Below, in pieces: positions 15,093-45,141 of a DNA stretch of 57,098 nt (the first letter of the stretch is position 1; every line of letters begins with the position of its first letter). The stretch spans positions 1-57,098 of the forward strand of contig JBAUWG010000037.1 in NCBI GenBank assembly GCA_049583675.1, read 5' to 3'. Position numbers and translations under genes: made by a program. Source of the stretch: Desulfobacterales bacterium (GTDB taxonomy: Bacteria > Desulfobacterota > Desulfobacteria > Desulfobacterales > UBA11574). The notes below the pieces were generated by a model. It made no database searches. It was not told the origin of the DNA and saw nothing but the letters and a program-made list of their open reading frames with translations.

Positions 15093-15185
15093 AAATGCTC
15101 AAAGCTGAAAGCTCAAAGCCTGAAGAAAAGACCTTTCAGCTCCCAAACCGTACCAGGATTCAATGCAAAATTAAAGGAATTGTCT

Positions 15186-26075: not shown

Positions 26076-26084
26076 GAAAAATTG

Positions 26085-28916: not shown

Positions 28917-28925
28917 TGGGTTGTC

Positions 28926-29873
28926 ATGGCGAATGACCATAAATATTTCGGCTTGTTTGGTTTTGTGCTGGCCTTTCTTGTTGGTATTCTCTTTTCAGGG
29001 TGTGCGGGTTTTTATGCCTCAACAATATTAAAAAAAACGGGTGGCATTCCGTCTCGTTTTGAACTTGACGCGGTCCCTTTTTTCCCCCAAAAGGCCGATC
29101 AATGCGGTCCTGCGGCCCTTGCTGAAGCCCTCCAATATAGTGGTATCGTGATTACACCGGAAAATTTGACCGATAAGGTCTTTACACCCGAGAAAAAAGG
29201 CAGTTTTCAAACCGCATTGATCGGCGCAGCCCGCCGAAACGGCAGAATCGCTTATGTATTATCGGGTCCGGAAGATCTGTTTCGGGAAGTGGCTGCAGGG
29301 AATCCGGTCATCGTTTTGCTAAATCTCGGATTGTCGTGGTATCCTGTCTGGCACTATGCGGTGGTGATCGGCTATGATTTGACCGAAAAAAGGGTTGTAC
29401 TGCGCTCGGGCAATATTGCCCGGGAGGTTTTATCGTTCTGGGTGTTTGAAAACACCTGGGCTCGAAGCCATCATTGGGGAATCATCATTCTTCGCCCCGA
29501 TCAATTCCCCGCCGTCGTAAAAGAAGATCGTTTTACAGAAGCCATATTCGGGCTTGAGAAGGCCCGTCGGTTCGGCGATGCCATCGACGGATACCAAACC
29601 GTGCTGTCACGATGGCCCGACAATCTTCCTGCGCTGATGGGCATCGGCAACTGCTACTATGCCCTCGGAGAACTTGAAAACGCCGAAACCGCCTTTAGAA
29701 AAACGATTTGTGCACATCCTGAATCAGGTTCGGCATTTAACAATCTTGCGCAAGTCCTCCTAGAGCTGGGGCAAATAAAAGAAGCGTTGGCAGCCGCCCG
29801 GAAAGCGGTCTCTTTGGGAGGTCCTTTAAGTACTGCATATCAAAAGACCCTCAAGGAGATTCAATCCAAATAA
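28926..29873 (+). CDS. C39-like cysteine peptidase domain plus TPR lipoprotein (PA2778-like)
   Basis: Lipobox-like LFSGC at the N-terminus. Papain-like Cys context ADQCGPAALAEAL and downstream His (WHYAVVIGYD). C-terminal TPR repeats (GNCYYALGELENAETAFRKTI, FNNLAQVLLELGQIKEALAAARKAV). Confidence 0.7.
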   Translation: MANDHKYFGLFGFVLAFLVGILFSGCAGFYASTILKKTGGIPSRFELDAVPFFPQKADQCGPAALAEALQYSGIVITPENLTDKVFTPEKKGSFQTALIGAARRNGRIAYVLSGPEDLFREVAAGNPVIVLLNLGLSWYPVWHYAVVIGYDLTEKRVVLRSGNIAREVLSFWVFENTWARSHHWGIIILRPDQFPAVVKEDRFTEAIFGLEKARRFGDAIDGYQTVLSRWPDNLPALMGIGNCYYALGELENAETAFRKTICAHPESGSAFNNLAQVLLELGQIKEALAAARKAVSLGGPLSTAYQKTLKEIQSK

Positions 29874-30169
29874 ATAGGAAACTATTGATTTTAAGGCCTT
29901 GATTAGATATAAAAAAGCCTCCACCGAAATGGAAGAAGCCTGTTTAATGGGATTCAGCGGAGGCTTTGAGTAAGGAAAACTGGTAACAGCACTCCTTCAA
30001 CTCGAAAAATAAATAGCAATTAATCCTGTGCAGGTCAACCAAAAACCCTTGACATGTGATAGGTATAATGATCGAAAAGGCGAGAGGTGAAGGATTGACG
30101 GATGTCTTGTCAAAGAGGATGGAGCGGGTTAAGGATTTTATATCTTTTTGTAATGTAAGGATAAAAGAA

Positions 30170-31495
30170 ATGATGGTGAATAAAAATTGGATGAGGCTAT
30201 TATTCTGTTTGGTCGTTTTGCCTTTGATGCTGTTTGTTGATGCTTCCTATGCGCAGGAACCTGTTAAAATTTTTACGCTCAATCAGACCATTGAAAGCGC
30301 CTTAAAAGTCAACCTTGGGTTAAAATCATCTAGAGATGAGACCTCCGCCTCTTTGGCCTTAAAAAAAGCGCAACGAACGCAATTTTTGCCCACATTCAGC
30401 ACATCTTATAAATATGACCGGTTTGATGAAGGAGTAGAGGTCGAAGGGTTTGTCCTCACACCAAAAACACAATACAGCTTTGTTACGTCATTCAGTCAAC
30501 CGATATTTACGGGGCTCTCATTGCTGAGAAAATACGATATTGCCAAGCTCGGTCTGGATAAAGCCAAGGTGAGTGAACAAATGACCCGGCAGAATATTAT
30601 TCTGGACGCAAAAAATGCTTATTTTCAACTGCTGAAGAAACAAAAACTGTACGACATTGCTCAACAGACTGTGGTCCAGATCAACGCTCAAAAGGATGTG
30701 GCTGAAAATTTTTATAAGGTTGGAATGACGCCGTTGAATGATCTGTTGCAGGCACAGGTTGAATTGGCCAATGCTAAACAAGATCTAATTGTCGCAAAAA
30801 ACAATATGGACAATGACAGATCGAATTTCAATACACTCCTTCGAAGACCGCTCAATGCACCCGTTATTTTACAAGATGTTTTGCATTATACGCATTTTGA
30901 CAAGAGCTTGGAATATTGCCTGTCCCAGGCCGAGAAAAATCGATGGGAGCTTCGAATCGCCGATTTGGACGTCGACATTTCCCAAAAACAATACCAGCTA
31001 TCCCAAAAAGACTATTATCCCACCATCAATCTTGAGGGAAACTATTTCAAGAACGGAACGGACTGGGATGTAAACGGCGGATTTGGAATCTATGATCCCA
31101 GCGGATGGGAAATCAGCGCTGTGGCGAAGTGGAATTTCTGGGAATGGGGGCGGACCTCATACGGTGTTCAAGAAAAATATTCCCGATGGTCTCAGGCAAA
31201 ACTGAATAAGCAAGAAATTGTCGACAATATTCGTTTGGAAGTCAAGACGGCATTCTTAAACACCGAGCAGGCCGAAAGGGCGATCAAAACCGTTGAGACA
31301 GCCATTGAACAGGCCAAAGAAAATTTCAGGATCTACCAGGAAAGATATAAGGAACAAATCGCCACGCAAACGGATGTGCTTATTGCACAAACGCTGCTTT
31401 CAAGAACCATGACGAGATATTACGATGCATTATACACATTTAAAATTTCGAAGGCTAAACTATATCGTGCCATTGGACAGGAAGTGAATAAATGA
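30170..31495 (+). CDS. TolC-family outer membrane efflux protein
   Basis: ORF 30056-31495 trimmed to the ATG at 30170, which gives the signal peptide MMVNKNWMRLLFCLVVLPLMLFVDASYA|Q. Two OEP repeats with long coiled-coil heptads. The stop overlaps the ftsE start (ATGA). Confidence 0.85.
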   Translation: MMVNKNWMRLLFCLVVLPLMLFVDASYAQEPVKIFTLNQTIESALKVNLGLKSSRDETSASLALKKAQRTQFLPTFSTSYKYDRFDEGVEVEGFVLTPKTQYSFVTSFSQPIFTGLSLLRKYDIAKLGLDKAKVSEQMTRQNIILDAKNAYFQLLKKQKLYDIAQQTVVQINAQKDVAENFYKVGMTPLNDLLQAQVELANAKQDLIVAKNNMDNDRSNFNTLLRRPLNAPVILQDVLHYTHFDKSLEYCLSQAEKNRWELRIADLDVDISQKQYQLSQKDYYPTINLEGNYFKNGTDWDVNGGFGIYDPSGWEISAVAKWNFWEWGRTSYGVQEKYSRWSQAKLNKQEIVDNIRLEVKTAFLNTEQAERAIKTVETAIEQAKENFRIYQERYKEQIATQTDVLIAQTLLSRTMTRYYDALYTFKISKAKLYRAIGQEVNK

Positions 31496-32196
31496 TGGAT
31501 CAACAGGGTAAAGCCTCTATAATTCGTCTGTTCCATGTTCATAAGAATTACGGTGCGGCTAAAGCGCTCAGCGATGTCACCATTGACATTTCAAAAAATG
31601 ATCTTCTTTTTATTACCGGCCCCAGTGGGGCCGGTAAAACGTCTCTGCTGAAGCTTATGTATTATGGGGAAGCCGTCACAGAGGGACAGGTATTGGTTGA
31701 CGGTATAAACCTGTCGAGAATCTCCCATAAAACAATACCGATGCTTCGACGAAAGTTCGGAATTGTATTTCAGGATTATAAGTTGATTCCGACCAAAACC
31801 GTATTCGACAATATCGCCATCGTCCTTGAAACAATCGGTAAAAAACGGCGATTTATTGAAAAAAAAATAAGGAGCGTGCTGAGAACCGTAAGTATGGAAA
31901 ACAGCATCCATTCCTTGCCGCCGACCCTGTCCGGTGGGGAACAGCAAAGGATTGCCGTTGCCAGGGCGATTGTCGGAGATCCAAAAATTATCCTTGCAGA
32001 CGAGCCGACAGGTAATTTGGATGAAGATTCCGCTGATGTTATCGTCGATCTTTTAAAAAAATTTCATACCAGAGGCGCTACGGTTATTATTGCCACCCAT
32101 GATAAAGAGCTCATCCGCAAAACAGGGGGCCGGGTCATTTATCTGAAGCAGGGCCGAATACACCCCATCAATTCGCCAAATAATGTGCTCCAATGA
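31492..32196 (+). CDS. ftsE: Cell division ABC ATPase FtsE
   Basis: 234 aa. Walker [10 protein letters not shown], signature LSGGEQQR, Walker [12 protein letters not shown]. FtsE-type size and the [16 protein letters not shown] context. Confidence 0.85.
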
Positions 32197-33071
32197 TGAT
32201 TTATTGTAAACGGGCCATAAAAGATATTCTTGAGCACAGATTTTTGAGCGTCGTCACCATCGTCACCATCTCGATTTCCATATTGATTGCCAGTGCTTTC
32301 ACGCTGTTTTTTATCAATGCGAACGCTGTTGTAAACTCCTGGAAAAAGGGAATCCGGATAATGGTCTATCTGAAACCCGACACCCCTGAAATAAAAGTAA
32401 CGGAGACAAAGCGCAATATCCAGAAGATGAAAGGTGTAGAAGATGTTCGATTCATTTCAAACAAAGACGCGTTGCAACGGTTGAAAAACCAAATGAAACG
32501 GCAATCTTCTCTGTTGGACAACCTGAAAGAAAACCCTCTCCCGGATGCTTTTGAAATTCAGCTTATGGAGTCTTTCCAAAATCAGGAAAAGATAGAAAAA
32601 CTTGCCGCACGTCTGGAATCGTTAAAGCCAGTGGATGAGGTCGAATATGGACAAGTTTGGCTGGGACGGTTTACGAACATTCTTAACCTGTTTAGATTAA
32701 CCGGATTCGCAATGGGCAGTCTTTTCCTGCTGGCGACCGTTTTGATTGTCGCCAACACCATTCGCCTGGTTCTCTATTCACGGCAAAAGGAAGTGGAAAT
32801 CATGCGGCTGGTGGGCGCGACCGACGGGTTCATCAAAGCCCCCTTTTATATCGAAGGCCTCATCCAGGGGGCACTGGGCGGGATTGTCGGCCTGGGGGCA
32901 TTGTTCATACTTTTTGTGTTCATTTCCTCCAACGTTGGACAGGAATTAACATCCAGTTTTTTTACGATTCGATTCCTTTCCTGGGAGACGATATTGGGAA
33001 TATGGGTTTGCAGCATGTTTGTGGGGTGGATCGGGTGCTTCGTTTCTTTAAAACAATTTTTAAAACAGTAG
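32193..33071 (+). CDS. ftsX: Cell division permease-like protein FtsX
   Basis: 292 aa. TM1, a periplasmic domain of about 110 aa, then three C-terminal TMs. ATGA overlap with ftsE. Confidence 0.85.
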   Translation: MMIYCKRAIKDILEHRFLSVVTIVTISISILIASAFTLFFINANAVVNSWKKGIRIMVYLKPDTPEIKVTETKRNIQKMKGVEDVRFISNKDALQRLKNQMKRQSSLLDNLKENPLPDAFEIQLMESFQNQEKIEKLAARLESLKPVDEVEYGQVWLGRFTNILNLFRLTGFAMGSLFLLATVLIVANTIRLVLYSRQKEVEIMRLVGATDGFIKAPFYIEGLIQGALGGIVGLGALFILFVFISSNVGQELTSSFFTIRFLSWETILGIWVCSMFVGWIGCFVSLKQFLKQ

Positions 33072-34465
33072 CCTATACCGCTATCGGTATCATTGCGGTT
33101 TTGCCATCTTATGATGTTGCCGTTGCGGGATCCAATGAAATCGGTGTGGTTATCGTAGATCAGCTGAATGTTCGGGCACAACCCGGCGTCAACACCCCCT
33201 CTTTGATGTTGATCTCTAAAGGGACAAAGGTCCAGATTGTCGAGCGCCATAAAGCATGGCTTAAAATAAAATATAAAAATCAGGTGGGTTATATTCGACA
33301 TTTAAAGGCATATGTGCATATTATAACTCAGGACATTCCAACTGAATCGAAAAATACCGGCAACTCCCCGGACGACATCGAAAAGTTTCAGAAAGAAGCA
33401 AAAAGCATCAATCAAAAGATCGAAAAAAAGACATCTGAACTTTTAAGATTCACCAGAAAAGAAACCGCCATCGTCAATAGCTTGAACGATATCGATCTTA
33501 CGCTTGACCACGCCCGGAAAAATGCATCATCGCTGAAAACAGAGCTTGCTGCTTTAGAAAAAGAAATGATTAAGACGAAAAATGATTCCGATGATCTTCA
33601 AAAAAGGATCAAAACCAGTGAAAATTACGCCGCTTTGCGCCTCGTGGCGATTTATAAACTGAGTTGGCTGGGAAGAATCTATGTTCTTGCCTCGGCCCGG
33701 TCCGTTTATGATCTTTTTCAGCGGAAAAGAGCCTTGGAACACGTGCTGGCATATGATGAAAGTGTTTGGAAAAACCTTGTGGAAAACAAAAAGCGGCTGC
33801 AACACCTGCTGGTCGACCTGGACCAAAAAAAAATGGAGAAACTCGCCGTTGAGGCAGATTACAGAAAACAGATTGAAATGATGTCTCGCGAGAGAAAAAG
33901 GCGATCAAAACTTCTAAATGATATTCGCAGGAAACGGTCTCTGAAGTTAGCGTCCCTTGAATCATTAAAGGAGGCGGCGGCAGATCTGGATCAGACCATA
34001 AATGCTTTAAAATCGGATTTTGATCGGGGCGGACCCCGTGAAAAAAAATCTTCAAAAAATTTTTCCGAATTAAAAGGATTGCTTAATATGCCGGTTAAAG
34101 GTAAAATAACATCCTTTTTCGGATCTCATCGAAATAAGAAATTGAATATTGTCAATTTCCAAAGCGGAATTGAAATAAAAGCCGACAGGGGCGAACCTAT
34201 TCATGCGGTCTATGATGGACGCGTTCTTTATGCCAGATGGTTTAAAGGATACGGAAATATGATCATCATAGACCATGGCAATAATTATTATACCATTTAT
34301 GCGCATGCGCAGGAACTCTTTGCGGCACAAGGAGATATCGTGGAAGCGGGAGAGGTGGTGGCCACGGTCGGAGATACAGGGTCAATGATCGGTCCGAGTC
34401 TTCATTTTGAGGTGCGCCATCACGGAAAGCCTGTAGATCCGTTGGAATGGATTAGTAAGGGGTAG
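33035..34465 (+). CDS. EnvC-like murein hydrolase activator: SH3 domain, coiled coil and degenerate LytM (M23) domain
   Basis: The start is uncertain (ATG 33002, GTG 33026 or GTG 33035), and every option overlaps the ftsX end. SH3-like VVIVDQLNVRAQPGVNTPSLMLISKGTKVQIVERHKAWLKIKY. Long coiled coil. The LytM domain has substituted Zn ligands (QSGIEI in place of HxxxD, PSLHF in place of PHLHF). Confidence 0.8.
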   Translation: MLRFFKTIFKTVAYTAIGIIAVLPSYDVAVAGSNEIGVVIVDQLNVRAQPGVNTPSLMLISKGTKVQIVERHKAWLKIKYKNQVGYIRHLKAYVHIITQDIPTESKNTGNSPDDIEKFQKEAKSINQKIEKKTSELLRFTRKETAIVNSLNDIDLTLDHARKNASSLKTELAALEKEMIKTKNDSDDLQKRIKTSENYAALRLVAIYKLSWLGRIYVLASARSVYDLFQRKRALEHVLAYDESVWKNLVENKKRLQHLLVDLDQKKMEKLAVEADYRKQIEMMSRERKRRSKLLNDIRRKRSLKLASLESLKEAAADLDQTINALKSDFDRGGPREKKSSKNFSELKGLLNMPVKGKITSFFGSHRNKKLNIVNFQSGIEIKADRGEPIHAVYDGRVLYARWFKGYGNMIIIDHGNNYYTIYAHAQELFAAQGDIVEAGEVVATVGDTGSMIGPSLHFEVRHHGKPVDPLEWISKG

Positions 34466-34530
34466 ACAGGATTGTTCACCCGTCGGGAAAACAGGTTGAT
34501 AAAAGATTCGGGCTATCGGGAGAAAATATT

Positions 34531-35898
34531 ATGAATATTCAGAAAAAACAGCATATTAAACTGTGGTTGGTTCTGTTGATCGCCGTTGTCTTCTGGACCG
34601 TCGGATCCGGTTTTTACAGAAACCTTTCGGCTAAGGGGGCAGAGACATATAAGGGGCTGAAGCTCTTCTCCGATGTGATTGAGCTGATTGAAAATAATTA
34701 TGTTGATCCCGTGAATTCGAAAGACTTGATCGACAAAGCGATTCAAGGAATGGTCAGCGGCCTTGATCCCCATTCTGCTTTTTTGTCTCCTGATGACTTT
34801 AAGGAGCTGCAGATCGACACGCAGGGTGAGTTCACAGGTATCGGCGTGAGCATCACCTTGAAGGATGGTTTTGTTACCGTGATTTCTCCCATTGAAGGGA
34901 CGCCGGCTTACAAAGCCGGAATCAAAGCCGGAGATAGAATTATCAAAGTCAACGGAAAACCCACCAGAGATTTGCGGGAAGCGGTCAAATTGATTCGAGG
35001 CCCTAAAGGAACCGAAGTCGTGGTGACCATTGTTCGTGAGGAAAGTAAAAAACCCATTGATTTTAAAATTGTCCGAGATATTATTCCTGTCGAGAGCGTT
35101 AAAGCGGCTGAATTAGAGCCCGGATACGGCTATGTCTGGGTCACCAATTTCAGAGAGAATACGACAGAAGATCTCGTTGCGGCACTGGATAAACTTGACT
35201 CCGCGAAAACACCCTTAAAAGGGTTGATTCTTGATCTTCGCGACGACCCGGGGGGACTTCTTGATCAAGCGATAGAGGTTTCAGATCTTTTTCTTGAAAA
35301 GGGTACAATCCTTTCCATCAGAGGGCGGAAGGAAAAAAACAACCAGGTTTTTAAAGCAACTCCGAATCAAACAAAACGGAATTATCCCATGGTTGTTCTC
35401 ATTAACGGCGGAACCGCCAGTGCTTCGGAAATCGTTGCCGGTGCACTTCAGGATCAAAAACGCGCGCTCATCATGGGAACCACTTCTTTTGGAAAGGGTT
35501 CGGTCCAATCCGTAGAAAGATTAAGAGACGGTTATGCGCTTAAATTGACCATTGCCAGATATTATACCCCCAGCGGTCGCTCGATACAGGCCAAAGGAAT
35601 TGTACCGGATATCATCGTCAAAAGAAGGTTTATTAATAAGGAAAATACGTCGTTTGTCACCGAGGAGATGATCAGAGAAAAAGACTTGAAAAATCATCTC
35701 GAAGCGGTGCCTGAAAACGAAAAAAATCATGAAACAGAAGGTGAAAACCAAGAAAAAACGCCTGAGAAACAAAAAACCCTAAAGCCAACATTTATTTACG
35801 GCAAGCTCAACCTTAAACAGCTGAAGGCGGATAATCAGGTGACACGTGCGCTGGATGCGCTTTTGAGCTATCAGATCTTCAAAGGTGTCAAAAATTAA
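34531..35898 (+). CDS. Carboxy-terminal processing peptidase (S41 family, PDZ domain)
   Basis: 455 aa. N-terminal TM/signal. PDZ domain (GIGVSITLKDGFVTVISPIEGTPAYKAGIKAGDRIIKVNG). S41 catalytic context GGTASASEIVAGALQD and TSFGKGSVQ. Confidence 0.9.
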   Translation: MNIQKKQHIKLWLVLLIAVVFWTVGSGFYRNLSAKGAETYKGLKLFSDVIELIENNYVDPVNSKDLIDKAIQGMVSGLDPHSAFLSPDDFKELQIDTQGEFTGIGVSITLKDGFVTVISPIEGTPAYKAGIKAGDRIIKVNGKPTRDLREAVKLIRGPKGTEVVVTIVREESKKPIDFKIVRDIIPVESVKAAELEPGYGYVWVTNFRENTTEDLVAALDKLDSAKTPLKGLILDLRDDPGGLLDQAIEVSDLFLEKGTILSIRGRKEKNNQVFKATPNQTKRNYPMVVLINGGTASASEIVAGALQDQKRALIMGTTSFGKGSVQSVERLRDGYALKLTIARYYTPSGRSIQAKGIVPDIIVKRRFINKENTSFVTEEMIREKDLKNHLEAVPENEKNHETEGENQEKTPEKQKTLKPTFIYGKLNLKQLKADNQVTRALDALLSYQIFKGVKN

Positions 35899-35901
35899 GG
35901 C

Positions 35902-36852
35902 ATGGCGAAGCGTGGGCGTCAGCGACCGAAGAAAAGTCTAAAAAAGACGAAAAAGCGCGGTATTTGGAGTACGTACCTGATACAGGCTGTTGCAGGACTC
36001 GGCATTTTGTTATTTCTGGTTGTCGTTGCCGGTGTGCTGTTGCGCCATTTCATGTCGAACAGAGATGTCGTGCCACCAATGACAAAATCCCGGGTTATCA
36101 GATCGCCCAGGTTTGAAGTCTATCCCAAAAATGATATATCGCCCCGCGAACCGCTGCCGAAAAAACCCCGCAAAGCCCTCGAAAGGTTACCCAAAATTGC
36201 CATAATTATTGATGATATCGGCTATGACAAAGCCATCGCAAATAAATTCTTGGCACTTAACGCGGTGTTAACATTTTCCATACTTCCTTACAGTCCCTAT
36301 GAGAAAAGCATTGCCAGTAGCGTTCATTCAAAAGGTTACGACGTGATGCTTCATTTGCCCATGGAGCCTGATGAGTATCCATCGATCAATCCCGGTCCCG
36401 GAGTGCTTCTGACTTCCATGACACCGGATCAACTGATCGGCCAGCTCAATGAAGACCTGGATGCTTTCCCGTTCATAACAGGGGTAAATAATCATATGGG
36501 GTCAAAAATGACGACGGTTTCTCCTCAACTCAACCAGATTTTTTCGGTGTTGAAGGGGAAAGGGCTTTTCTTTATTGACAGCCGCACCACGCCGGATACG
36601 CTTTGCAAACCATCGGCGCAGCTCTTCAAAGTTCCTTTTGCGCAAAAAGATGTCTTTATCGATCATAAACCGGAACCCGACTTTATCCGCAAACAAATCC
36701 AACGGCTCATAATGATTGCCGATAGTCATGGCGAAGCGGTCGGGATTGCGCACCCACATCCCGAAACTTATGATATCCTTCGTGAAATGCTGCCGGAGCT
36801 TCAAAAAAAGGCAACACTGGTTCGTGCATCCGATATTGTACATAATAATTAG
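35902..36852 (+). CDS. Divergent polysaccharide deacetylase family protein (YibQ-like)
   Basis: 316 aa. N-terminal TM, then the YibQ-type core (KIAIIIDDIGYD, MLHLPMEP, GVNNHMGS, FFIDSRTT). Starts 4 nt after the ctp stop. Confidence 0.8.
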   Translation: MAKRGRQRPKKSLKKTKKRGIWSTYLIQAVAGLGILLFLVVVAGVLLRHFMSNRDVVPPMTKSRVIRSPRFEVYPKNDISPREPLPKKPRKALERLPKIAIIIDDIGYDKAIANKFLALNAVLTFSILPYSPYEKSIASSVHSKGYDVMLHLPMEPDEYPSINPGPGVLLTSMTPDQLIGQLNEDLDAFPFITGVNNHMGSKMTTVSPQLNQIFSVLKGKGLFFIDSRTTPDTLCKPSAQLFKVPFAQKDVFIDHKPEPDFIRKQIQRLIMIADSHGEAVGIAHPHPETYDILREMLPELQKKATLVRASDIVHNN

Positions 36853-37083: not shown

Positions 37084-37725
37084 ATGATTAACACCCTGGC
37101 CATACACACGCGGTTGATCGATAAATTTCTTGCCTATTTGTGCGTGTGTTATGTTGCCATGGTTTTATGGGTTGATCACCTTGGAAAATTTTCCCTGCCC
37201 GCAAATCAATATCGATTCATTTTCTGGTTTTCCGTTCCCATGGGTTTTTATCTGTGGACGGTATATTCAGCAAAAAATCGCAGTGAGATTTTACACTGGC
37301 TGGATGTAAGGGCCCTCAGCCGAAAAGAATGGCACGCCGCATCCGTGCTTATGGCGGGCTTGGTGCTGGTGATTGCTGTTATTCCACTGGTTCCATCTTT
37401 GGCCGATTACTACAGGCCGGGCAGAATAAGCGTCGGCCGCCGGTTGATCTGGCTGGCGGCTTGGTTTCCCGGCTGGGAGTTGATGCATCGATGTCTTCTG
37501 GCCTATCACATTCCGCGTTCTTTGCCAAGACACGCCTGGTTGCTGATCCCTTTATTTGAAGGTCTCTATCATTTTAATAAGCCCTGGCCTGAAATGCTGG
37601 GCATGTTTGCCTGGAGCGGGGCATTGACGTTTTGGACGATCAAGCGGAAAAATGCCTGTCTGGCGATCTTGGCCCACCTGGTGCTGGAATGCTTGCTCAT
37701 CGCTTACCTGGGTTTCGGCGCTTGA
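37084..37725 (+). CDS. Polytopic membrane protein, possible divergent CPBP (CAAX-type) intramembrane protease
   Basis: 213 aa with about 6 TM helices. Weak CPBP-like motifs (GWELMHR for ExxxR, EGLYH, AILAHLVLE). The assignment is tentative. Confidence 0.4.
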   Translation: MINTLAIHTRLIDKFLAYLCVCYVAMVLWVDHLGKFSLPANQYRFIFWFSVPMGFYLWTVYSAKNRSEILHWLDVRALSRKEWHAASVLMAGLVLVIAVIPLVPSLADYYRPGRISVGRRLIWLAAWFPGWELMHRCLLAYHIPRSLPRHAWLLIPLFEGLYHFNKPWPEMLGMFAWSGALTFWTIKRKNACLAILAHLVLECLLIAYLGFGA

Positions 37726-37861
37726 ACGGATAATAAAAAAAGGGTCTCTTAAAAATACCGGGGATCTTGACTTGACAGTACAATGTGTGAATAATGTTTT
37801 CATGCCGCTAAGGTGGTACTAAGCCTTTAATATGCTGATTTGAGAATAAGGCGGGGGGGTC

Positions 37862-39355
37862 ATGAAGAAATTTTTCAATATTTTTTTAATGACGCTGTTT
37901 TCTTTATTGTCGGCATCTCTTATCGTGGCGCATCCGCCGGCACATGCCGGGGACGTCCGAAAACCGCTATTTGCCGGCTCTTTCTACCCGGATACCGCCG
38001 AAGAACTTTCGACGGTGATTAAAAAATATGTCAGCCGGGTTAAGCCGGCCCATGTCAATCACCCGCCGGATACTTCACTCAAGGCGCTCATCATACCCCA
38101 CGCAGGATATGTCTATGCCGGATGGACGGCAGCCCATATTTCATCGGCAGTCAATGGAGATCGATCCAGAAGGATCATCGTCATGGGGCCGGACCATCGT
38201 ATCGGGTTTGAAGGATGTGCCGTCAGTGACGCGGCCGCCTGGGAAACTCCTTTGGGCCGGATTCGACTGGATCAGGGCGCCGACCGACTGCGCCAAAATA
38301 AAACCCTGTTTCAGGTGATTCCGGCGTCCGACCGGCTCGAACATTCCGTGGAAGTGGTTCTCCCGTATCTTCAGTATTTTTTTAAAAACTTTACCCTCAT
38401 CCCCGTCGTGTTCGGCCGGGGACAGGATCTGGCTGAAAAGGCGTCGGCATCCCTTGATCCTTTGTTGGATCAGGAGACTCTGATTGTGGCCAGTTCGGAT
38501 TTATCCCATTATCTGCCTTATCAGAAAGCAATTGCGAAAGATCGGGAAACCATTGAAAGCATCTTAACGCTGAATGACCGCAAATTGATAATGCGTGAGA
38601 ATGCCGCTTGCGGCAAGGTGCCGATTCTGGTTCTTATGGACATGGCCCGCCGTCACCACTGGCAGCCGGTTCTTCTTCATTATTCCAACAGCGGTGACAC
38701 CGCCGGAGATCGTTCAAGGGTTGTCGGTTATGCATCCATCGCCTTTTACGGAGGTTCATCTATGAAAGACCATGCAGATTCTATTCAATCTTTGAATGAG
38801 CGCCAGGGCCAGATACTGGTAAAACTGGCTCGGCAGACCATTGCTCAAAAGCTTGGAAAACGTTCGACCAAAGTTGATCCGGGTGCTTTAGCAGACCCGG
38901 GCTTTCAGAAAAAAAGGGGCACCTTTGTAACATTAACCATCGACAAACAGTTGCGGGGGTGCATCGGCAACTTGGATGCACGAGACTCAATTTTGGGCGG
39001 GGTCAGACGAAATGCCGTCAACGCCGCCTTCCATGACCCTCGTTTTTCCCCATTGAAAGCGGATGAACTGGACCATGTGGATATCGAAATCAGTATCCTT
39101 ACCGAACCCCGGTTCCTGGAATATCGGGACAGCAACGAATTGATTTCCAAATTGCGCGTTCATGTCGATGGGGTTATTCTTCAAAAAGGATCAGCCGGCG
39201 CCACCTTTTTACCCCAGGTGTGGGAGCAGTTGCCGAAGCCTGAAGATTTTCTTTCCCATCTTTGCATGAAAGCAGGACTGCCCGCCGACACCTGGAGAAA
39301 GGAACATCTCGATGTTTCGACTTACCAGGTTCAATATTTTGAAGAGGAGAAATGA
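37862..39355 (+). CDS. Fusion of AmmeMemoRadiSam system protein B (Memo-like) and protein A (AMMECR1) with N-terminal Sec-type signal peptide
   Basis: 497 aa. Signal MKKFFNIFLMTLFSLLSASLIVAHPPAHA|G. Memo motifs PHAGYVYAG, MGPDHR, LEHSVEV, SSDLSHY and ACGKVP. From about nt 38760, the AMMECR1 motifs GTFVTLTIDKQLRGCIGN and ATFLPQVWEQL. Confidence 0.85.
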   Translation: MKKFFNIFLMTLFSLLSASLIVAHPPAHAGDVRKPLFAGSFYPDTAEELSTVIKKYVSRVKPAHVNHPPDTSLKALIIPHAGYVYAGWTAAHISSAVNGDRSRRIIVMGPDHRIGFEGCAVSDAAAWETPLGRIRLDQGADRLRQNKTLFQVIPASDRLEHSVEVVLPYLQYFFKNFTLIPVVFGRGQDLAEKASASLDPLLDQETLIVASSDLSHYLPYQKAIAKDRETIESILTLNDRKLIMRENAACGKVPILVLMDMARRHHWQPVLLHYSNSGDTAGDRSRVVGYASIAFYGGSSMKDHADSIQSLNERQGQILVKLARQTIAQKLGKRSTKVDPGALADPGFQKKRGTFVTLTIDKQLRGCIGNLDARDSILGGVRRNAVNAAFHDPRFSPLKADELDHVDIEISILTEPRFLEYRDSNELISKLRVHVDGVILQKGSAGATFLPQVWEQLPKPEDFLSHLCMKAGLPADTWRKEHLDVSTYQVQYFEEEK

Positions 39356-41447
39356 ACATGTAGTAACACGGGTGATCATCGCTACCGGTGTCTCGTCCGT
39401 AGTGACCCAGTTATTGATCATTCGTGAATTTCTGGCCCAGTTCCAGGGGAACGAGTTTGTTATCGCCCTGATTCTCTTCAACTGGCTTATTTTGGGCGGA
39501 ATCGGCACGATTTTATCCCGCAGAATCACTCGAAACTTATGGGCCGCCACCGCAACCCGGCTGGGCTGGCTCTCTTTTCTTTTGGCGGGGTTGCCCGGTG
39601 TTCAGATCATAGCCATCCGGTATCTTCGCGATATCTTTTTCATCCATGGAAGTTCCGTCGGGTTCTATCCCTTTTTAATCTATTCCTTCCTGATCACCGC
39701 CCCCTATTGCCTGATGATCGGTTTTGTTCTCCCTTACAGTCTTTTCGTCATCAGAACGTCGAATGCCGACTATCCCGGCGCACTGATTTATATATCGGAT
39801 AATTTGGGAGATGTTTCCGGCGGGGCCTTGTTTTCCTTTGTCCTGGTTTTTTGGGTTTCTCCGATGACCGCCGTATTTCTGGCCAACCTGCCGTTGCTAT
39901 TGTCCGCAATCCTGCTCTTTCATCATTTTTCCGGGGGTCGTCTTTCGGTCTATTTAGGAGCAGCCGCAACGATAGTCGTGCTGGGGGCCGGGATATTTTT
40001 AGAGCCGGCATCACTGGTTTTGCCTGAAGGCAAGCTGGCCTATTACAGTGAATCCCGATATGGCCGGATCCAGGTTTTGCAAAATCAGGAACAATATACG
40101 CTGTTCCTTGGGGGCGCCCCGTTGTTCAGCAGCCAGAATTTGAGCATGGCCGAAGAAACCATCCATTATCCCTTGTCGCAAGTGGATACGGCACGAAATA
40201 TTCTTTTGATCTCCGCCCAAGGCGGTATAATGACCGAACTTGAAAAATATCGTTCGGTGTCCGTTGATTATGTGGAACTGGATCCGAAAGTCGCGGATGT
40301 TGAATTCAGGTTCGGATTGATCAAAAAAATTCCAGGGCTTGCAATCATTCACCAAGATGGAAGGGCGTATCTGGAGAAATCGAACAAAATCTATGATGCC
40401 ATTATCGTGAACCTGAGTGAACCGGATACGTTTCAAATCAACAGATTCTATACCGATCGATTTTTTGCGCTGGCCCGGCGTCACCTGGGCCAACATGGGG
40501 TGTTGAGTTTTGCCATGGAGGGATTCGACAATTACCTGGCTGAACCCCAGAGACAGAAGCTTTCTTCGTTATATAATACGGTCTGCGATTATTTTAGCCA
40601 TGTGCTGTTGCTGCCGGGAGAAAAAATTTTTTTCCTTTGCGGTTCCCGGCCCATCAATACCGATATCCCGAAAATTCTAAATCAAAAAGGGATTTCAACG
40701 CGATATATCAGCGGATACTATTACGGAGATGTGACCCCTGAAAGAATCGAGCGGTTAAACGCGCTCATCGACCCAAAGACGCCCAAAAACTTAGATGATG
40801 CCCCCCAACTCATGCATCTCATGTTTTTGCAATGGTTTGCAAAGTTTTCCACTTCCCCGACCGGCTTCATGGTGGTTTTGGCGCTGTTTTGTACGGTCTA
40901 CCTTTTTCGTCTCCATTCGGAAGAATTTGTTCTTTTTTCCACCGGATTTATGGTCATGGGAAGTGAGATCCTGGTAATATTTGCTTTTCAAATTTTTTTC
41001 GGATATATTTATTTTCAAATCGGCCTGATCGTCACTGTTTTTCTGGCCGGTCTTTTGCCCGGCGCCTGGCTCGGGGATAGACTCAGAAAGAGAAGCAAAC
41101 AGATCCTCATGTTCACCGACGGCCTCCTGATCGTTTTCATGGGGCTGCTGATGGCAGCACTCAAGCAGGCCGGACATCATCTGCCGGTGACGGCTTACCT
41201 GGTTTTCGGATTTTTCGTTTCACTGATTTGCGGTTTTCAGTTTCCGGTGGCACTCTACGTAAGAGGCGGAGATGCTTCTGCGGTGACGCAGACCTTTTCT
41301 GCGGATCTTATCGGGGCGGCTTTCGGCACATTGATCGCCAGTGTCGTCCTGATTCCTTATTTCGGCATTATCTGGACGGCGGCCGGCCTGATCGGGCTTA
41401 AGCTTTTGAGTTTAACGGTGACCTATTTAAGTTATGAAAACGTTTAG
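39312..41447 (+). CDS. Fused polytopic membrane / spermidine synthase-like protein
   Basis: 711 aa. About 7 N-terminal and about 6 C-terminal TM helices flank a SpeE-fold domain (ILLISAQGGIMTELE, VDYVELDPKV, DAIIVNLSEPDTFQINRFYTDRFF). The start is either ATG 39312 (44-nt overlap with the upstream gene) or in-frame GTG 39372. Confidence 0.75.
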   Translation: MFRLTRFNILKRRNEHVVTRVIIATGVSSVVTQLLIIREFLAQFQGNEFVIALILFNWLILGGIGTILSRRITRNLWAATATRLGWLSFLLAGLPGVQIIAIRYLRDIFFIHGSSVGFYPFLIYSFLITAPYCLMIGFVLPYSLFVIRTSNADYPGALIYISDNLGDVSGGALFSFVLVFWVSPMTAVFLANLPLLLSAILLFHHFSGGRLSVYLGAAATIVVLGAGIFLEPASLVLPEGKLAYYSESRYGRIQVLQNQEQYTLFLGGAPLFSSQNLSMAEETIHYPLSQVDTARNILLISAQGGIMTELEKYRSVSVDYVELDPKVADVEFRFGLIKKIPGLAIIHQDGRAYLEKSNKIYDAIIVNLSEPDTFQINRFYTDRFFALARRHLGQHGVLSFAMEGFDNYLAEPQRQKLSSLYNTVCDYFSHVLLLPGEKIFFLCGSRPINTDIPKILNQKGISTRYISGYYYGDVTPERIERLNALIDPKTPKNLDDAPQLMHLMFLQWFAKFSTSPTGFMVVLALFCTVYLFRLHSEEFVLFSTGFMVMGSEILVIFAFQIFFGYIYFQIGLIVTVFLAGLLPGAWLGDRLRKRSKQILMFTDGLLIVFMGLLMAALKQAGHHLPVTAYLVFGFFVSLICGFQFPVALYVRGGDASAVTQTFSADLIGAAFGTLIASVVLIPYFGIIWTAAGLIGLKLLSLTVTYLSYENV

Positions 41448-42615
41448 CCGACGTCAATTTCTGTATTGCGGTGCGGGGCTTTTCTGCAGCGCCGTATCCG
41501 CCCAGGCATTCTGGCCGTTTTCCAAAAAAACAGGCATGGCAGCCGGACCGGCCGATATCCGCGGGCATGTCTTCAAAGGGGATGCGCCCGAGACATTGTG
41601 GAAATGGTCCCGTGAGGGATTTTTATATACAAAACTGGATAACAAACTGGTGCTTTGCGGTATCTGCCCGAACAGATGCCTTTTATCTCCCGGAGACCGA
41701 AGTGTTTGCCGTTCCAAGGTCAATATGGACGGCATTCTATACAGCTTGACCTACGGCAATCCTTGCAGCGTGAACGTGGATCCCATTGAAAAAAAACCGC
41801 TGTATCATTTCAAGCCGCGGTCAAATGCCTTTTCCATTGCCACTGCCGGCTGCAACTTCCGCTGTCTGAACTGCCAGAACTGGGAAATCTCTCAAGCCAA
41901 ACCGAACGAGGTTCGGCATTACGAACTTTTTCCGGCAGATGTCGTTAAAGCCGCACAGCAAAGCAAATGCCTGTCCATTGCATACACCTATTCGGAGGCG
42001 GTGACATTTTTTGAATATATGATCGACACCGCACGACTGGCCAGAGAAAGCGGTGTCTTCAATTTGTGGATTTCAAACGGTTATATCAACCGGGAACCGC
42101 TGCTGGCGCTCTGCAAGGTGCTGGATGCCGCCAATGTCAATCTCAAATCTTACAGCGACGCCATCTATCGAAAACTGAACGGCGGCCGGCTTCAGCCGGT
42201 GCTGGATACCTTTAAAACCCTGCGCGAACAAGGGGTCCATTTTGAAATGACAAATCTGGTGGTTCCCGGTTATGTGGATGACGATGATATGGTCAAAAAG
42301 ATGTGCGGATGGATTCTTGAAAACCTGGGCCCGGATTATCCCCTTCATTTTTTGCGGTTTTTTCCTAAATATAAACTTGATCGCCTGCCTTCGACCCCGG
42401 TCTCAACCCTGGTTCGATTCCGTAAACTGGCCATGTCGCAAGGCATCCATTATGTCTATGTGGGAAACGCTGCCTATCCCGAAGGAAACAACACCTATTG
42501 CCACCACTGCAAAAAATTGCTGATTGAACGGGCCGGTTATTTCATCCCGACCTACAACCTGGATGAGAATCGATGCAAGTTCTGCAAAACGCTGATTCCC
42601 GGCCGGTGGGAGTGA
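41434..42615 (+). CDS. amrS: AmmeMemoRadiSam system radical SAM enzyme with twin-arginine signal-like N-terminus
   Basis: 393 aa. N-terminus MKTFSRRQFLYCGAGLFCSAVSAQA|F. Cys-rich LCGICPNRCLLSPGDRSVCRSK. Radical SAM CX3CX2C motif in ATAGCNFRCLNCQNWEIS. 14-nt overlap with the upstream gene. Confidence 0.85.
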   Translation: MKTFSRRQFLYCGAGLFCSAVSAQAFWPFSKKTGMAAGPADIRGHVFKGDAPETLWKWSREGFLYTKLDNKLVLCGICPNRCLLSPGDRSVCRSKVNMDGILYSLTYGNPCSVNVDPIEKKPLYHFKPRSNAFSIATAGCNFRCLNCQNWEISQAKPNEVRHYELFPADVVKAAQQSKCLSIAYTYSEAVTFFEYMIDTARLARESGVFNLWISNGYINREPLLALCKVLDAANVNLKSYSDAIYRKLNGGRLQPVLDTFKTLREQGVHFEMTNLVVPGYVDDDDMVKKMCGWILENLGPDYPLHFLRFFPKYKLDRLPSTPVSTLVRFRKLAMSQGIHYVYVGNAAYPEGNNTYCHHCKKLLIERAGYFIPTYNLDENRCKFCKTLIPGRWE

Positions 42616-42662: not shown

Positions 42663-43022
42663 TCACCAGAGCATTAAATATTTCTTTCCGTCTCTGAGTT
42701 CGCCTCTTAACTTCTCCATATGTCTGAGCGATGCAATTTCTCTTTCAAGATCCGCAGGATTTATCCCGAGCCGATGGATGATGTCCCCTGGTTCGGCGCC
42801 GCCCGTTTCCTTTAACAGGCGCAATATATTTTTCTGGGTCTCATTGAGTTCCAGGGGCCCGCCTTTGGATTTTGCAAAAGACTGTGCACTGTGCACGGCC
42901 CATGGGTCGCACGCTTTGGCCGGTGACAGCGCATCCATATAGCAATCTTCGCATAAAACCTGTCCGAGATGCTCTCTTTCTTCTCCGGTGTTGATGTCTT
43001 CGGAACATCGATCACATTTCAT
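42663..43022 (-). CDS. Small Zn-ribbon plus winged-helix (FeoC-like) putative regulator
   Basis: 119 aa. CxxC...CxxC (MKCDRCSEDI...VLCEDCYMD), then an HTH-like segment NETQKNILRLLKETGGAEPGDIIHRLGINPADLEREIASLRHMEKL. Divergent from aor. Confidence 0.6.
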   Translation of the reverse strand: MKCDRCSEDINTGEEREHLGQVLCEDCYMDALSPAKACDPWAVHSAQSFAKSKGGPLELNETQKNILRLLKETGGAEPGDIIHRLGINPADLEREIASLRHMEKLRGELRDGKKYLMLW

Positions 43023-43344: not shown

Positions 43345-45141
43345 ATGAAGGGCTTTTACGGAAAATATTTAAACATAAATTTGACCGATGAAACATATGA
43401 GGTCGTTTCGATAAGCGATAGGATACTGGCGCGGTATCTCGGTGGGAAAGGTCTGTCGTCCTATCTTCTTTATACCTTGAATCCTCCGGGCGTCGATCCA
43501 TTGTCGCCGGACAACCGTTTGATTTTTGCCACCGGCCCCATCGCCAATAGCAGAATATGGGGATCGAGCCGTTACGGCGTCTTTACGAAGTCCCCTCAGA
43601 CCGGTTTTTATTCCGAATCCTATGCCGGCGGAAAAGTCCCGGAAGCCATGGATTCATCGGGGTTCGACGCCATCGTCCTATTCGGCAAAGCCAGGCGACC
43701 TACGGTGGTTTTGGTACATCCCAAGGGTGCGGAATTCTTTGATGCGGCGGGGATATGGGGTATGGACACCTATGAAACCGAAGATACCGTGAACCGAAGA
43801 TTCGGAGGCATGGGTTCCGGACCGGAAAAATCAGGTGCTGTTGTCATCGGTCCTGCCGGAGAAAACCGAATTCGATTCTCGGTCATCGAAAACGATTACT
43901 GGCGATCTGCAGGAAGAACCGGAACCGGAGCGGTTATGGGATCGAAATATCTCAAAGCCGTCGTGTTTAAGGGCGATAAAAGGCGTCTTCTTTTCGATAC
44001 GGAAACGGTGAAACGCTTTTCGAGGGAAATCGCCGGTGAATCGAGAAATAATCCTGTGGCCCAAGCATACAAAAAGATGGGGACGCCCATGATGGTGAGA
44101 ACCACCAATCAGGCCCGTGCATTTCCAACGAAATACTGGTCTCAAGGTTTTTTTGATCGATGGGAAAATATCAGCGCCGAGGCCCTGCACCGGCAATGCC
44201 GTGTTCAGCCGAGGGCCTGTGCAAAGTGCTTTATCGCATGCGGCCGAATGACCACGGTGGTCAACGGGCGCCATGCCGGTCTGAAAATCGAAGGGCCCGA
44301 ATATGAGACCATATTTGCCTTTGGCGGGCTTTGCATGATCGACAGTATCGAAGAGATTGCATATTTAAACGACGTTTGCGACCGTGTGGGGATGGATACC
44401 ATCTCCGCCGGGAATCTCTGCGGGTTGACCATTGAAGCCGCGAAAAAGAAAAAGATCGATCTTAAGATCGGTTACGGCGATATCGACGCCATTGCCGATT
44501 TGCTTAAAAAAATTGCAGGCAGGCAGGGGATCGGAGATATCCTGGCCCGGGGTATTAAACATGCGGCAAAAATTTGGGATATGGAAGATACGGCGGTGCA
44601 CGTGAAAGGACTTGAACCCCCGGGTTACGATCCCAGGGTTCTTAAAGGCAGCGGCTTGGCCTTTTCCGTATCGGACCGCGGCGCTTGCCACTTGAGAGCG
44701 ACGTTTCACAATCCCGAATTAAAAGGGATGATTCATCCGGACACTGTAACAGGCAAATCCGAACTACTGATCGATTTCGAAGACCGCCTGATTCTCATGG
44801 ACACGCTGATTTTATGCCGATTTTTCAGAGATATCTATCCCTGGGACCGGCTGGGGCAGATCATTGAAATGACCACCGGTATTAGAGCGGACAAAGCGGC
44901 ATTGCAGAACATCGCTTCCGGAATCGCCTCGCTGACGCGCTGCTTTAACCTTCGGGAAGGTCTCAAACCCGAGGATGACCGTCTTCCCCGGCGTTTTTTC
45001 AAAGAAATGCTAAAAACAGGTCATGTGGCCAATGAAACAAATCTGGCGGTGATGCTCAAAGATTATTACACCCTTCGCGGCTGGGATGAAGACGGGGTTC
45101 CTGAACACATAGATGGTGATCAGGCGCTTGAACAGACTTAA
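43345..45141 (+). CDS. aor: Aldehyde:ferredoxin oxidoreductase (tungstopterin AOR family)
   Basis: 598 aa. AOR N-terminal domain (MKGFYGKYLNINLTDETYEV...RYLGGKGLSSYLLY). [4Fe-4S] ligands in RACAKCFIACGR and DRGACHLR. Pterin-binding C-terminal domains. Confidence 0.9.
   Translation: MKGFYGKYLNINLTDETYEVVSISDRILARYLGGKGLSSYLLYTLNPPGVDPLSPDNRLIFATGPIANSRIWGSSRYGVFTKSPQTGFYSESYAGGKVPEAMDSSGFDAIVLFGKARRPTVVLVHPKGAEFFDAAGIWGMDTYETEDTVNRRFGGMGSGPEKSGAVVIGPAGENRIRFSVIENDYWRSAGRTGTGAVMGSKYLKAVVFKGDKRRLLFDTETVKRFSREIAGESRNNPVAQAYKKMGTPMMVRTTNQARAFPTKYWSQGFFDRWENISAEALHRQCRVQPRACAKCFIACGRMTTVVNGRHAGLKIEGPEYETIFAFGGLCMIDSIEEIAYLNDVCDRVGMDTISAGNLCGLTIEAAKKKKIDLKIGYGDIDAIADLLKKIAGRQGIGDILARGIKHAAKIWDMEDTAVHVKGLEPPGYDPRVLKGSGLAFSVSDRGACHLRATFHNPELKGMIHPDTVTGKSELLIDFEDRLILMDTLILCRFFRDIYPWDRLGQIIEMTTGIRADKAALQNIASGIASLTRCFNLREGLKPEDDRLPRRFFKEMLKTGHVANETNLAVMLKDYYTLRGWDEDGVPEHIDGDQALEQT

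Follow-up and report, generated by a model that had tools for sequence, protein, structure and literature searches.

Organization of the locus

The AmmeMemoRadiSam trio (TIGR04335-7) is a comparative-genomics system of unknown function that joins a Memo-type protein (AmrB), an AMMECR1-type protein (AmrA) and a radical S-adenosylmethionine (SAM) enzyme (AmrS). The window considered here is the whole of a 57,098-nucleotide (nt) stretch of DNA from a Desulfobacterales bacterium (contig JBAUWG010000037.1). Its forward strand carries a three-gene locus for a version of this system in which the soluble proteins have predicted export signals, and in which a membrane protein with a spermidine synthase-like (SpeE-like) domain is encoded between them.

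The first gene, amrBA (37862..39355), encodes a fusion of AmmeMemoRadiSam protein B (Memo) and protein A (AMMECR1) of 497 amino acids (aa), identified by profile hidden Markov models (HMMs) and by its relatives in the Protein Data Bank (PDB). The third, amrS (41434..42615), encodes the AmmeMemoRadiSam radical SAM enzyme (393 aa, TIGR04337). Between them lies the gene for the SpeE-like membrane protein, whose longest open reading frame (ORF) runs from 39312 to 41447 (711 aa) and overlaps amrBA by 44 nt and amrS by 14 nt. Orthologues of this middle protein are mostly 702-703 or 691-692 aa long, and its start is therefore probably the TTG at 39339 (702 aa; 39339..41447) or the GTG at 39372 (691 aa); with the TTG start, the first overlap shrinks to 17 nt. 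The initial annotation had described three tightly packed, overlapping genes, and their coordinates, strand and order are exactly as it placed them. The motifs that it quoted are likewise all present in the translations, namely IIPHAGYVYAG, MGPDHR, LEHSVEV, SSDLSHY, ACGKVP, GTFVTL...LRGCIGN, MKKFFNIFLMTLFSLLSASLIVAHPPAHA|G and MKTFSRRQFL.

The ATG of amrBA is preceded by a strong Shine-Dalgarno sequence, aaggcggggggg. A candidate sigma-70-type promoter (TTGACT-17-AATAAT, 10 of 12 positions matching) lies on the same strand at 37767..37795, within the 136-nt gap that precedes amrBA. A scan for promoters and terminators returned 10 sites against a shuffled expectation of 7.3, which is no excess, and the promoter candidate is accordingly weak evidence.

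AmrBA and its Sec-type signal peptide

Both halves of AmrBA score well above the curated cut-offs of their families, as the initial reading of a Memo/AmrB-AMMECR1/AmrA fusion had implied. The AmrB domain matches TIGR04336 in NCBIfam at 245 bits (cut-off 26; residues 33-295) and PF01875 in Pfam at 177 bits. The AmrA domain, which contains LRGCIGN, matches TIGR04335 at 204 bits (cut-off 99; residues 318-493). The closest solved structures are those of MEMO1 (3bcz) and of the archaeal AMMECR1-like proteins 1wsc and 1vaj.

The HMM cores do not cover the first 30 residues of AmrBA. Residues 1-29 (37862..37948, forward strand), MKKFFNIFLMTLFSLLSASLIVAHPPAHA|G, form a predicted Sec-type signal peptide with a positive n-region and a hydrophobic core of Kyte-Doolittle (KD) hydropathy 2.13, ending in AHA|G, where AHA conforms to the AxA cleavage motif. 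The distribution of such signals was followed in 80 amrS loci, collected by scanning GTDB species genomes with an AmrS alignment, and the window proteins were then searched against the six-frame ORFs of these loci; the loci come from Desulfobacterota, Bacteroidota, Omnitrophota, Ignavibacteriota, WOR-3 and other phyla. A signal peptide is found on AmrBA in all 34 cases with a readable N-terminus beside an AmrS with a twin-arginine translocation (Tat)-type N-terminus. Beside an AmrS that lacks an N-terminal extension, AmrBA has a signal peptide in 2 cases and none in 6 (34:0 versus 2:6; Fisher p = 5e-6, a value that, like the Fisher value given below for gene linkage, overstates significance because the loci lack phylogenetic independence). 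Both the features of the sequence itself and these equivalents support the Sec-type signal that had been proposed for AmrBA.

AmrS and its Tat-type signal

AmrS matches TIGR04337 at 350 bits (curated cut-off 220) over residues 65-393, leaving the first 64 residues outside the model, so that all three AmmeMemoRadiSam assignments stand above their cut-offs. Over its full 393 aa it is a 100% match to a protein from a metagenome-assembled genome (MAG) that NCBI names AmmeMemoRadiSam radical SAM enzyme. Its closest solved structure by PDB sequence search is that of PflA (3c8f). The CX3CX2C radical SAM cluster motif (C140/C144/C147; 41851..41874, forward strand) is invariant in 30 aligned sequences, and seven further cysteines (C75, C78, C92, C356, C359, C381 and C384) are equally invariant. 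The AlphaFold model of AmrS was uninformative and was not used, with a predicted local distance difference test score (pLDDT) of 45.7 from a shallow alignment of 20 sequences at >=74% identity.

The initial annotation had noticed an SRRQFL twin-arginine motif at the start of AmrS. The N-terminus does read SRRQFLY, followed by YCGAGLFCSAVS and then AQA|F, and residues 1-25, MKTFSRRQFLYCGAGLFCSAVSAQA|F (41434..41508, forward strand), are a predicted Tat signal in which an RR or KR motif is conserved across phyla. Among N-extended AmrS proteins (an alignment of 30 sequences that are otherwise 34-78% identical), R6, R7 and F9 are nearly invariant. When 1.84 billion representative proteins were searched, AmrS with an N-terminus longer by 40-75 residues turned up in about 30 separate clusters at 50% identity. 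In nearly all of them the extension carries [ST]-R-R-x-F-[LI] followed by a mildly hydrophobic stretch; apart from this, the extensions are unrelated in sequence. The Tat-like pattern occurs at 58 of 81 AmrS N-termini compared with 20 of 436 (4.6%) other ORFs of the same loci. An Arg-Arg pair is found in Desulfobacterota and most other groups, and in Bacteroidales (L021-L025, L032, L034, L042, L043, L047 and others) the motif is consistently S-K-R-E-F-[IL]-K.

Several observations argue that this region belongs to the protein. The N-extension is kept in relatives that are 74-100% identical, nearly all of which are called at 393 aa. Comparison of the first 27 codons of amrS with those of an 85%-identical relative (L001) reveals 7 synonymous and 2 non-synonymous changes, a coding-type pattern which argues that the N-terminal region is translated. 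Orthologues thus do not begin downstream of the proposed signals, given the near-invariant twin arginine in the 30 AmrS sequences and the AmrBA signal in 34 of 34 cases.

The two signals differ in hydropathy. The AmrS signal region contains no helix of transmembrane (TM) character, and no 19-residue KD window reaches 1.6. In operons with a SpeE-like gene, the h-region of AmrS has a KD value of 1.73 +/- 0.37, versus 2.98 +/- 0.40 for AmrBA (p = 2.5e-13), the latter being typical of Sec signals. This gap matches the known contrast between Tat and Sec signals, and an iron-sulfur (Fe-S) passenger such as AmrS would fit export through Tat.

The membrane protein: a predicted 14-helix transporter with a SpeE-like domain

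The AlphaFold (AF2) model of the membrane protein (pLDDT 86.2, predicted template modelling score 0.85, 27 sequences) opens with seven helices, continues with an alpha/beta domain of SpeE type and closes with six helical elements, of which the last could hold two helices. On the forward strand, helices TM1-TM6 and a connector, TM7, are encoded at 39372..40016 (assigned from the AF2 model, repeat homology and the charge of the loops). The SpeE-like Rossmann domain (residues ~240-510) is encoded at 40029..40841, and a second connector, TM8, with TM9-TM14 at 40857..41447. Residues 21-206 are homologous to residues 540-708 (hhalign probability 97.6%, E 3.4e-12), and TM1-6 and TM9-14 therefore constitute a parallel six-helix repeat, with TM7, the SpeE-like domain and TM8 inserted between the two copies. 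A motif-A-like sequence, GAWLGDRLRKRS, is found in the TM10-11 loop. When the full-length model was compared with solved structures using Foldseek, it matched the major facilitator superfamily (MFS) transporters NorC and PepTSt (E ~1e-3, target-normalised TM-score 0.45-0.50), both 14-helix members.

The distribution of basic residues gives an independent view of topology. Across 43 family members, lysine plus arginine (K+R) averages ~19 on the side assigned to the cytoplasm (N-tail, loops and C-tail) versus ~2 on the opposite side; in the first half of the protein the K+R-rich parts are the N-tail and the TM2-3, TM4-5 and TM6-7 loops. Because helix parity, MFS homology and the positive-inside rule agree, the SpeE-like domain is predicted to face the periplasm. 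These results indicate that the membrane protein is probably a 14-helix MFS-like transporter with a SpeE-like domain in a periplasmic loop. The initial annotation had described a spermidine-synthase fold sandwiched between two TM bundles; fold and bundles both hold, and the protein is better described as MFS-like with a catalytically degenerate SpeE-like domain.

The kinship of that domain to SpeE is clear, and so is its distance from the functional families. It matches Thermus thermophilus SpeE (1uir) with a profile E of 3.9e-24 and, in Foldseek, with an E of 4e-11 and a target-normalised TM-score of 0.67-0.69. Only the generic domain model, PF01564 Spermine_synth, is passed (41 bits against 22.9). 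The cut-offs of the SpeE equivalogs are all missed, with scores of 44.7 against 249.55 for TIGR00417, 63.7 against 260 for PRK00811 and 95.4 against 472 for PRK03612. The alignment with PRK03612 covers residues 12-398 of the membrane protein and includes the N-terminal membrane region of PRK03612. NF037959, 'fused MFS/spermidine synthase', scores 39.1 against a cut-off of 40 and covers residues 315-431 only, the SpeE part; NCBI gives one family member (P0394) this same name.

Within the domain, the parts that would hold an adenosyl ligand are retained and those associated with aminopropyl transfer are not. The Gly-rich loop is kept. E322, D349 and D362 line up with the ribose- and adenine-contacting positions of SpeE. 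E322, at the ribose contact, is E in 40 of 43 family members, and D349 (at the adenine contact) and D362 are conserved in 43 of 43; E322 and D349 align to the VDID and DDAR motifs of 1uir. In SpeE structures, the aminopropyl group and the amine are held by two acidic residues, one in GGGDG and the other the first, catalytic Asp of DxxDP. The Asp of the Gly loop (GGGDG) is lost, its position being variable among the 43 members (SAQGG in the window), and the catalytic position of DxxDP is N in 24 members, L in 6, S in 4 and D in 3 (NLSEPD in the window). Residues E281, H285, N377, R378, N493 and P498 are invariant and specific to the family. From this pattern of residues we infer that the SpeE-like domain probably binds an adenosyl ligand and is no aminopropyltransferase.

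Linkage across genomes

When all ORFs of the 80 loci were clustered, only three families recurred across them, AmrS (80 loci), AmrBA (52) and the SpeE-like protein (48); the remaining ORFs represent lineage-level synteny or shadow ORFs. The initial annotation had treated the SpeE-like gene as an insert that interrupts the module. Its recurrence with the amr genes argues instead that it is a conserved fourth component. A SpeE-like gene lies within 3 kb of 47 of the 53 Tat-type amrS genes with adequate flanks. For AmrS without an N-extension the gene is present in 3 cases and absent in 7 (47:6 versus 3:7; Fisher p = 2.8e-4), and two of those 3 are second, cytoplasmic-type copies adjoining an exported set. 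The pairing of the SpeE-like membrane protein with exported-type Amr proteins is near-obligate.

Members of Desulfobacterota, Bacteroidota, Ignavibacteriota, Omnitrophota and other groups keep the SpeE-like gene beside amr genes, and at least four gene orders occur. Mapped onto a neighbour-joining (NJ) tree built from 206 AmrS domains, the export trait requires 10 changes, compared with about 69 after shuffling. Four further SpeE-like proteins were found by profile and not via AmrS, and all have Memo/AMMECR1 and radical SAM genes on their flanks; their loci show Tat-like motifs even where the gene caller began downstream.

Some individual loci depart from the common arrangement. One Bacteroidales locus (L034:1838-9023) contains both kinds of system in one genome: a cytoplasmic-type AmrS (335 aa, no extension) and AmrB (296 aa, no signal) lie directly upstream of a complete exported set, in which an AmrBA that bears a signal peptide is joined by a SpeE-like protein of 823 aa and a Tat-type AmrS. 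Another locus (L078) has two AmrS copies. In Thermodesulfobacteriota-type loci L014 (1772-2506) and L086 (5180-5905), an AMMECR1 protein alone (241-244 aa) precedes the SpeE-like gene and a Tat-type amrS, with no Memo domain nearby; the AMMECR1 protein of L086 has a signal peptide. Finally, a MAG labelled Candidatus Aenigmatarchaeota (L019:7864-11369) carries a SpeE-like gene (776 aa) in convergent orientation to the gene for a Tat-type AmrS (MTRREFVKK), an occurrence that is either archaeal or a binning artefact.

Fusions and partner genes in other lineages

AmrS homologues are fused to a range of other domains (P0243, P0245, P0247, P0268, P0253, P0256 and P0259). The fusions include DsbD_2, DsbD_2 with FMN_bind and Fer4_5, and FMN_bind with Fer4_5, and also a signal peptide with a Reg_prop beta-propeller, with CBM_11, or with Memo and AMMECR1. 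In the fusions with the propeller, CBM_11 or Memo-AMMECR1, the chain lacks an internal helix that would bring the radical SAM domain back to the cytoplasm. In five Omnitrophota loci (L028:1516-4837, L041, L044, L063 and L066), AmrS has a lipobox-like hydrophobic N-terminus, AmrBA has a signal peptide and no SpeE-like gene is nearby. In L028 a DsbD_2 membrane-protein gene lies 3' of AmrS-AmrBA in place of the SpeE-like gene. A gene cluster of this DsbD_2 kind spans five loci, which are not necessarily the five just named.

Two other variations involve the SpeE-like gene itself. In Bacteroidales its product is 805-837 aa long (L049, L054, L056, L057, L061, L064, L071, L072, L074 and L075), with about 100 extra N-terminal residues that contain three helices and conserved His residues. 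Matches of this N-terminus to DUF4405/cytochrome b561 are sub-threshold (4 of 10, E 1e-4 to 0.013), and the DUF4405 assignment was kept as a hint only; the three helices may be a haem-b electron conduit. At two loci of one Bacteroidales lineage (L084:8145-10526 and L085), a gene for a 793-aa TonB-dependent outer-membrane receptor stands between the SpeE-like gene and amrS, its start overlapping the stop of the SpeE-like gene by 4 nt. The receptor is a hint that a substrate from outside is taken up into the periplasm. The fusions and partner genes point to a membrane or extracytoplasmic setting, presumably with a dedicated supply of electrons or substrate. The window itself encodes no electron-transfer module (NosR/NapH-type, DsbD/CcdA or DUF4405) beside the operon.

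A model for a probable exported system and its alternatives

Judged from its sequence, the locus probably encodes an exported AmmeMemoRadiSam variant, a periplasm-facing machine with four functional parts in three genes. An envelope-localised machine had been suggested at the outset, and the suggestion gains support from signals and gene linkage that are conserved across phyla. In the proposed pathway, AmrB-AmrA would be exported unfolded via Sec with cleavage of its signal peptide, and AmrS would be exported folded via Tat with its Fe-S cluster(s) already in place. Both would act at the periplasmic face of the dedicated 14-helix MFS-like protein, which would link the periplasmic enzymes to cytoplasmic pools. 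The transporter might carry an adenosyl compound, taking SAM outwards and/or 5'-deoxyadenosine back, with the SpeE-like domain as the periplasmic binding and hand-over site; alternatively, it might export the substrate. With a substrate in the envelope or periplasm, AmrS would perform the reaction of the cytoplasmic system. It might, for example, install a protein radical on the conserved RGCIG motif of AmrA: because its closest relatives are glycyl-radical activases, AmrS may itself be an activase, with AmrA as the site of the radical, and little SAM would then be needed. Reducing power may be drawn from DsbD_2, NosR/NapH-like or DUF4405-like modules in other lineages and, in this sulfate-reducer lineage, from low-potential periplasmic redox proteins. 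The most specific version of the model, a SAM/5'-deoxyadenosine shuttle by an MFS transporter with a SpeE-derived domain that serves a Tat-exported AmrS outside the cytoplasm, is possible and should be held tentatively.

A number of points weigh against this model. Envelope localisation is a prediction, in which the signals were judged by motif, hydropathy and conservation, and the nature of the transported ligand is something that we infer entirely. We know of no characterised extracytoplasmic radical SAM enzyme, nor, to our knowledge, are SAM, low-potential reductant and Fe-S assembly found outside the cytoplasm. Bacteroidales AmrS proteins carry K-R where R-R is expected, and the AmrS proteins of Omnitrophota and several fusions have Sec-, lipoprotein- or single-helix-type N-termini, which would make Fe-S acquisition hard to explain. 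Pfam TAT_signal matches only 2 of 30 AmrS N-termini, and weakly (3 of 30 for TAT_signal or UCR_Fe-S_N), which leaves the Tat reading neither supported nor refuted by such models; the window AmrS gives a weak match to the UCR_Fe-S_N Tat-signal model (E 0.006). The MFS likeness of the membrane protein is structural and marginal, and no MFS family matched it at E <= 0.01 in a Pfam scan. Six Tat-type amrS loci with good flanks have no SpeE-like gene nearby, and the phylogenetic non-independence of the loci, mentioned above, tempers the linkage statistics.

The supply problems would vanish if the N-terminal extensions were membrane tethers, with AmrBA and AmrS kept at the cytoplasmic face beside the membrane protein and all SAM chemistry cytoplasmic. 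Some AmrS fusions do come after NapH/NosR-like helices, and the ferredoxin domains of characterised NapH/NosR-like proteins are cytoplasmic; one fusion (P0244) is also more positive after its single helix than before it. The h-region of AmrS is, however, too weakly hydrophobic for an anchor by the 19-residue window measure, and it is preceded by the consensus S-R-R-x-F-L and followed by AxA. The AmrBA signal is a textbook cleavable one (positive n-region, hydrophobic core, AHA|G), the SpeE-like partner domain is placed outside by three independent arguments, and the fusions of a signal peptide and a propeller or CBM_11 to AmrS lack a helix that would bring the chain back inside. Tethering therefore seems improbable to us. 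Still harder to credit is a lineage-specific synteny or gene-calling artefact, with the SpeE-like gene functionally unlinked to the amr genes. It is true that the Rce1-like gene, the helix-turn-helix (HTH) gene and the aldehyde:ferredoxin oxidoreductase (AOR) gene that neighbour the operon are not conserved beyond close relatives, and that some gene callers place the amrS start downstream of the signal. Against this, the linkage extends across several phyla in at least four gene orders, the genes overlap, the signals co-vary with the presence of the SpeE-like gene, and the N-terminal region of amrS has coding-type substitutions.

A different kind of alternative accepts export and concerns what the membrane protein does. 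The SpeE-like domain could be a working alkyl-, aminopropyl- or methyltransferase, in which case the membrane protein would export and modify a polyamine-like or lipid substrate, AmrS and AmrBA would process the product, and the transporter would deliver substrate and not cofactor. The domain is a true SpeE homologue, its Gly-rich loop, ribose Glu, adenine Asp and family invariants suggest a conserved active or binding site, and the NCBI name of one family member includes spermidine synthase. We nonetheless regard an active transferase as unlikely, since both acidic residues that define aminopropyl transfer are unconserved and the SpeE equivalog scores fall far under their cut-offs. A periplasmic transferase would moreover itself need exported SAM or decarboxylated SAM (dcSAM), so that the cofactor problem remains.

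Genomic context of the locus

A run of cell-envelope genes lies upstream of the module at 18593-36852. It comprises a YhdP-like gene (minus strand), genes for TamB/AsmA-like and Omp85 proteins, the latter with POTRA repeats, a C39-like peptidase with TPR, OEP, FtsE, FtsX, an M23 peptidase and an S41 CtpA-like protease, and a divergent polysaccharide deacetylase gene. From the C39-like peptidase/TPR gene onwards the run recurs in L001, whose fetched locus begins there, and it is not seen in other phyla. This context fits an envelope role, yet the arrangement is not conserved beyond close relatives.

Directly 5' of amrBA, 37084-37725 encodes a membrane protein of 213 aa whose Rce1-like/CPBP match stays below threshold (21.2 versus 22.4 bits) and which was found among the fetched loci in L001 only. 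This gene and the HTH gene downstream of amrS (42663-43022) were considered as members of the module and rejected, as both are present in close relatives only. An aldehyde:ferredoxin oxidoreductase gene (AFOR_N and AFOR_C) at 43345-45141 lies between the HTH gene and an SH3 gene; L001 lacks it at the corresponding position, indicating a local gain or loss. Further away, at 9198-16352, an IcmF-like fusion (B12-binding, MeaB GTPase and methylmalonyl-CoA mutase, 1092 aa) is followed on its 3' side by thiolase, 3-hydroxyacyl-CoA dehydrogenase, HTH-cupin regulator and acyl-CoA dehydrogenase genes, an ordinary-looking acyl-CoA catabolic cluster.

Relationship to known systems and significance

The window system shares with AmmeMemoRadiSam the three HMM matches above cut-offs, the CX3CX2C, RGCIG and Memo His/Asp/Cys motifs, the adjacency of the genes and the B-A fusion, which is itself known. 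It differs in having Sec and Tat signals and a fourth component, the MFS-SpeE protein; loci with a short AmrS largely lack both. The described archaeal, eukaryotic and bacterial members are implicitly soluble and cytoplasmic, a matter on which there is no formal criterion, and the window system departs from them in its predicted signals. The gene neighbourhood and fusions of AMMECR1, a ring-opening-dioxygenase-like protein and a radical SAM enzyme were noted by Balaji and Aravind (2007; PMC2034487), who proposed a function in RNA base modification. A periplasmic location would be difficult to square with that proposal.

Among characterised proteins, the glycyl-radical activases (PflA 3c8f, NrdG and YjjW) are the nearest relatives of AmrS, both by HMM and by PDB sequence search. 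They are small radical SAM enzymes whose target is a partner protein. AmrS scores 49-51 bits against family cut-offs of 230-250, however, and it has extra invariant N- and C-terminal Cys clusters and a predicted Tat signal; we know of no glycyl-radical partner for it. Tat-exported Fe-S proteins provide a precedent for the export of a cofactor-loaded protein, and AmrS would resemble them in its S/T-R-R-x-F-L-K consensus, weak h-region, AxA motif and Fe-S passenger; the difference is that here the passenger is a radical SAM enzyme. Extracytoplasmic electron-transfer modules (NosR/NapH-type FMN_bind and Fer4_5, DsbD/CcdA) are related to the system through AmrS homologues that are fused to, or encoded beside, DsbD_2 or FMN_bind and Fer4_5.

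The membrane protein similarly combines features of two families. With SpeE (PF01564, T. thermophilus 1uir), PRK03612 and NF037959 it has fold and clear homology in common, whereas its SpeE-like domain sits between homologous six-helix bundles, is predicted to be periplasmic and has unconserved catalytic aspartates. With 14-helix MFS transporters (NorC 7d5p, PepTSt 5oxp/6eia) it shares a parallel pair of homologous six-helix repeats, a further two helices in the centre, a basic loop resembling motif A that follows helix 2 in either repeat, and the full-length Foldseek matches. The loop between the central helices is short in such transporters, compared with a 270-residue Rossmann domain in the window protein. 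The nearest named family, 'fused MFS/spermidine synthase', is uncharacterised.

The envelope-facing version had initially been matched to no described system, and the literature searched offers none: it contains no description of an exported Amr subtype, of the near-obligate pairing with a membrane protein or of a periplasmic SpeE-like domain, and nothing on a periplasmic radical SAM enzyme or on the fused MFS/SpeE family. This coverage excludes Burroughs et al. 2019 (J Biol Chem), which might touch on this context; its abstract reportedly takes the gene contexts of Memo in the direction of 'nucleotide base and aliphatic isoprenoid modification'.

MEMO1 and AMMECR1, proteins with links to human disease, are conserved all the way from archaea to humans, and we know of no explanation for the reaction that they carry out with a radical SAM partner. 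The presence of an exported variant in several phyla would narrow the range of substrates: for this clade at least, nucleic acids would become improbable, and small molecules, lipids or envelope components would gain in likelihood. The MFS-SpeE gene and, in some lineages, the TonB-dependent receptor or DsbD_2 gene offer genetic handles on that substrate. If the predicted localisation is true, this would be the first radical SAM system known to us that works outside the cytoplasm, raising the questions of how SAM and electrons are delivered, how 5'-deoxyadenosine is removed and how the Sec-type relatives acquire their Fe-S clusters. If an extracytoplasmic AmrS is indeed supplied by a transporter, Memo-AMMECR1-radical SAM chemistry would have as its target a small molecule, a lipid or a component of the envelope instead of nucleic acid.

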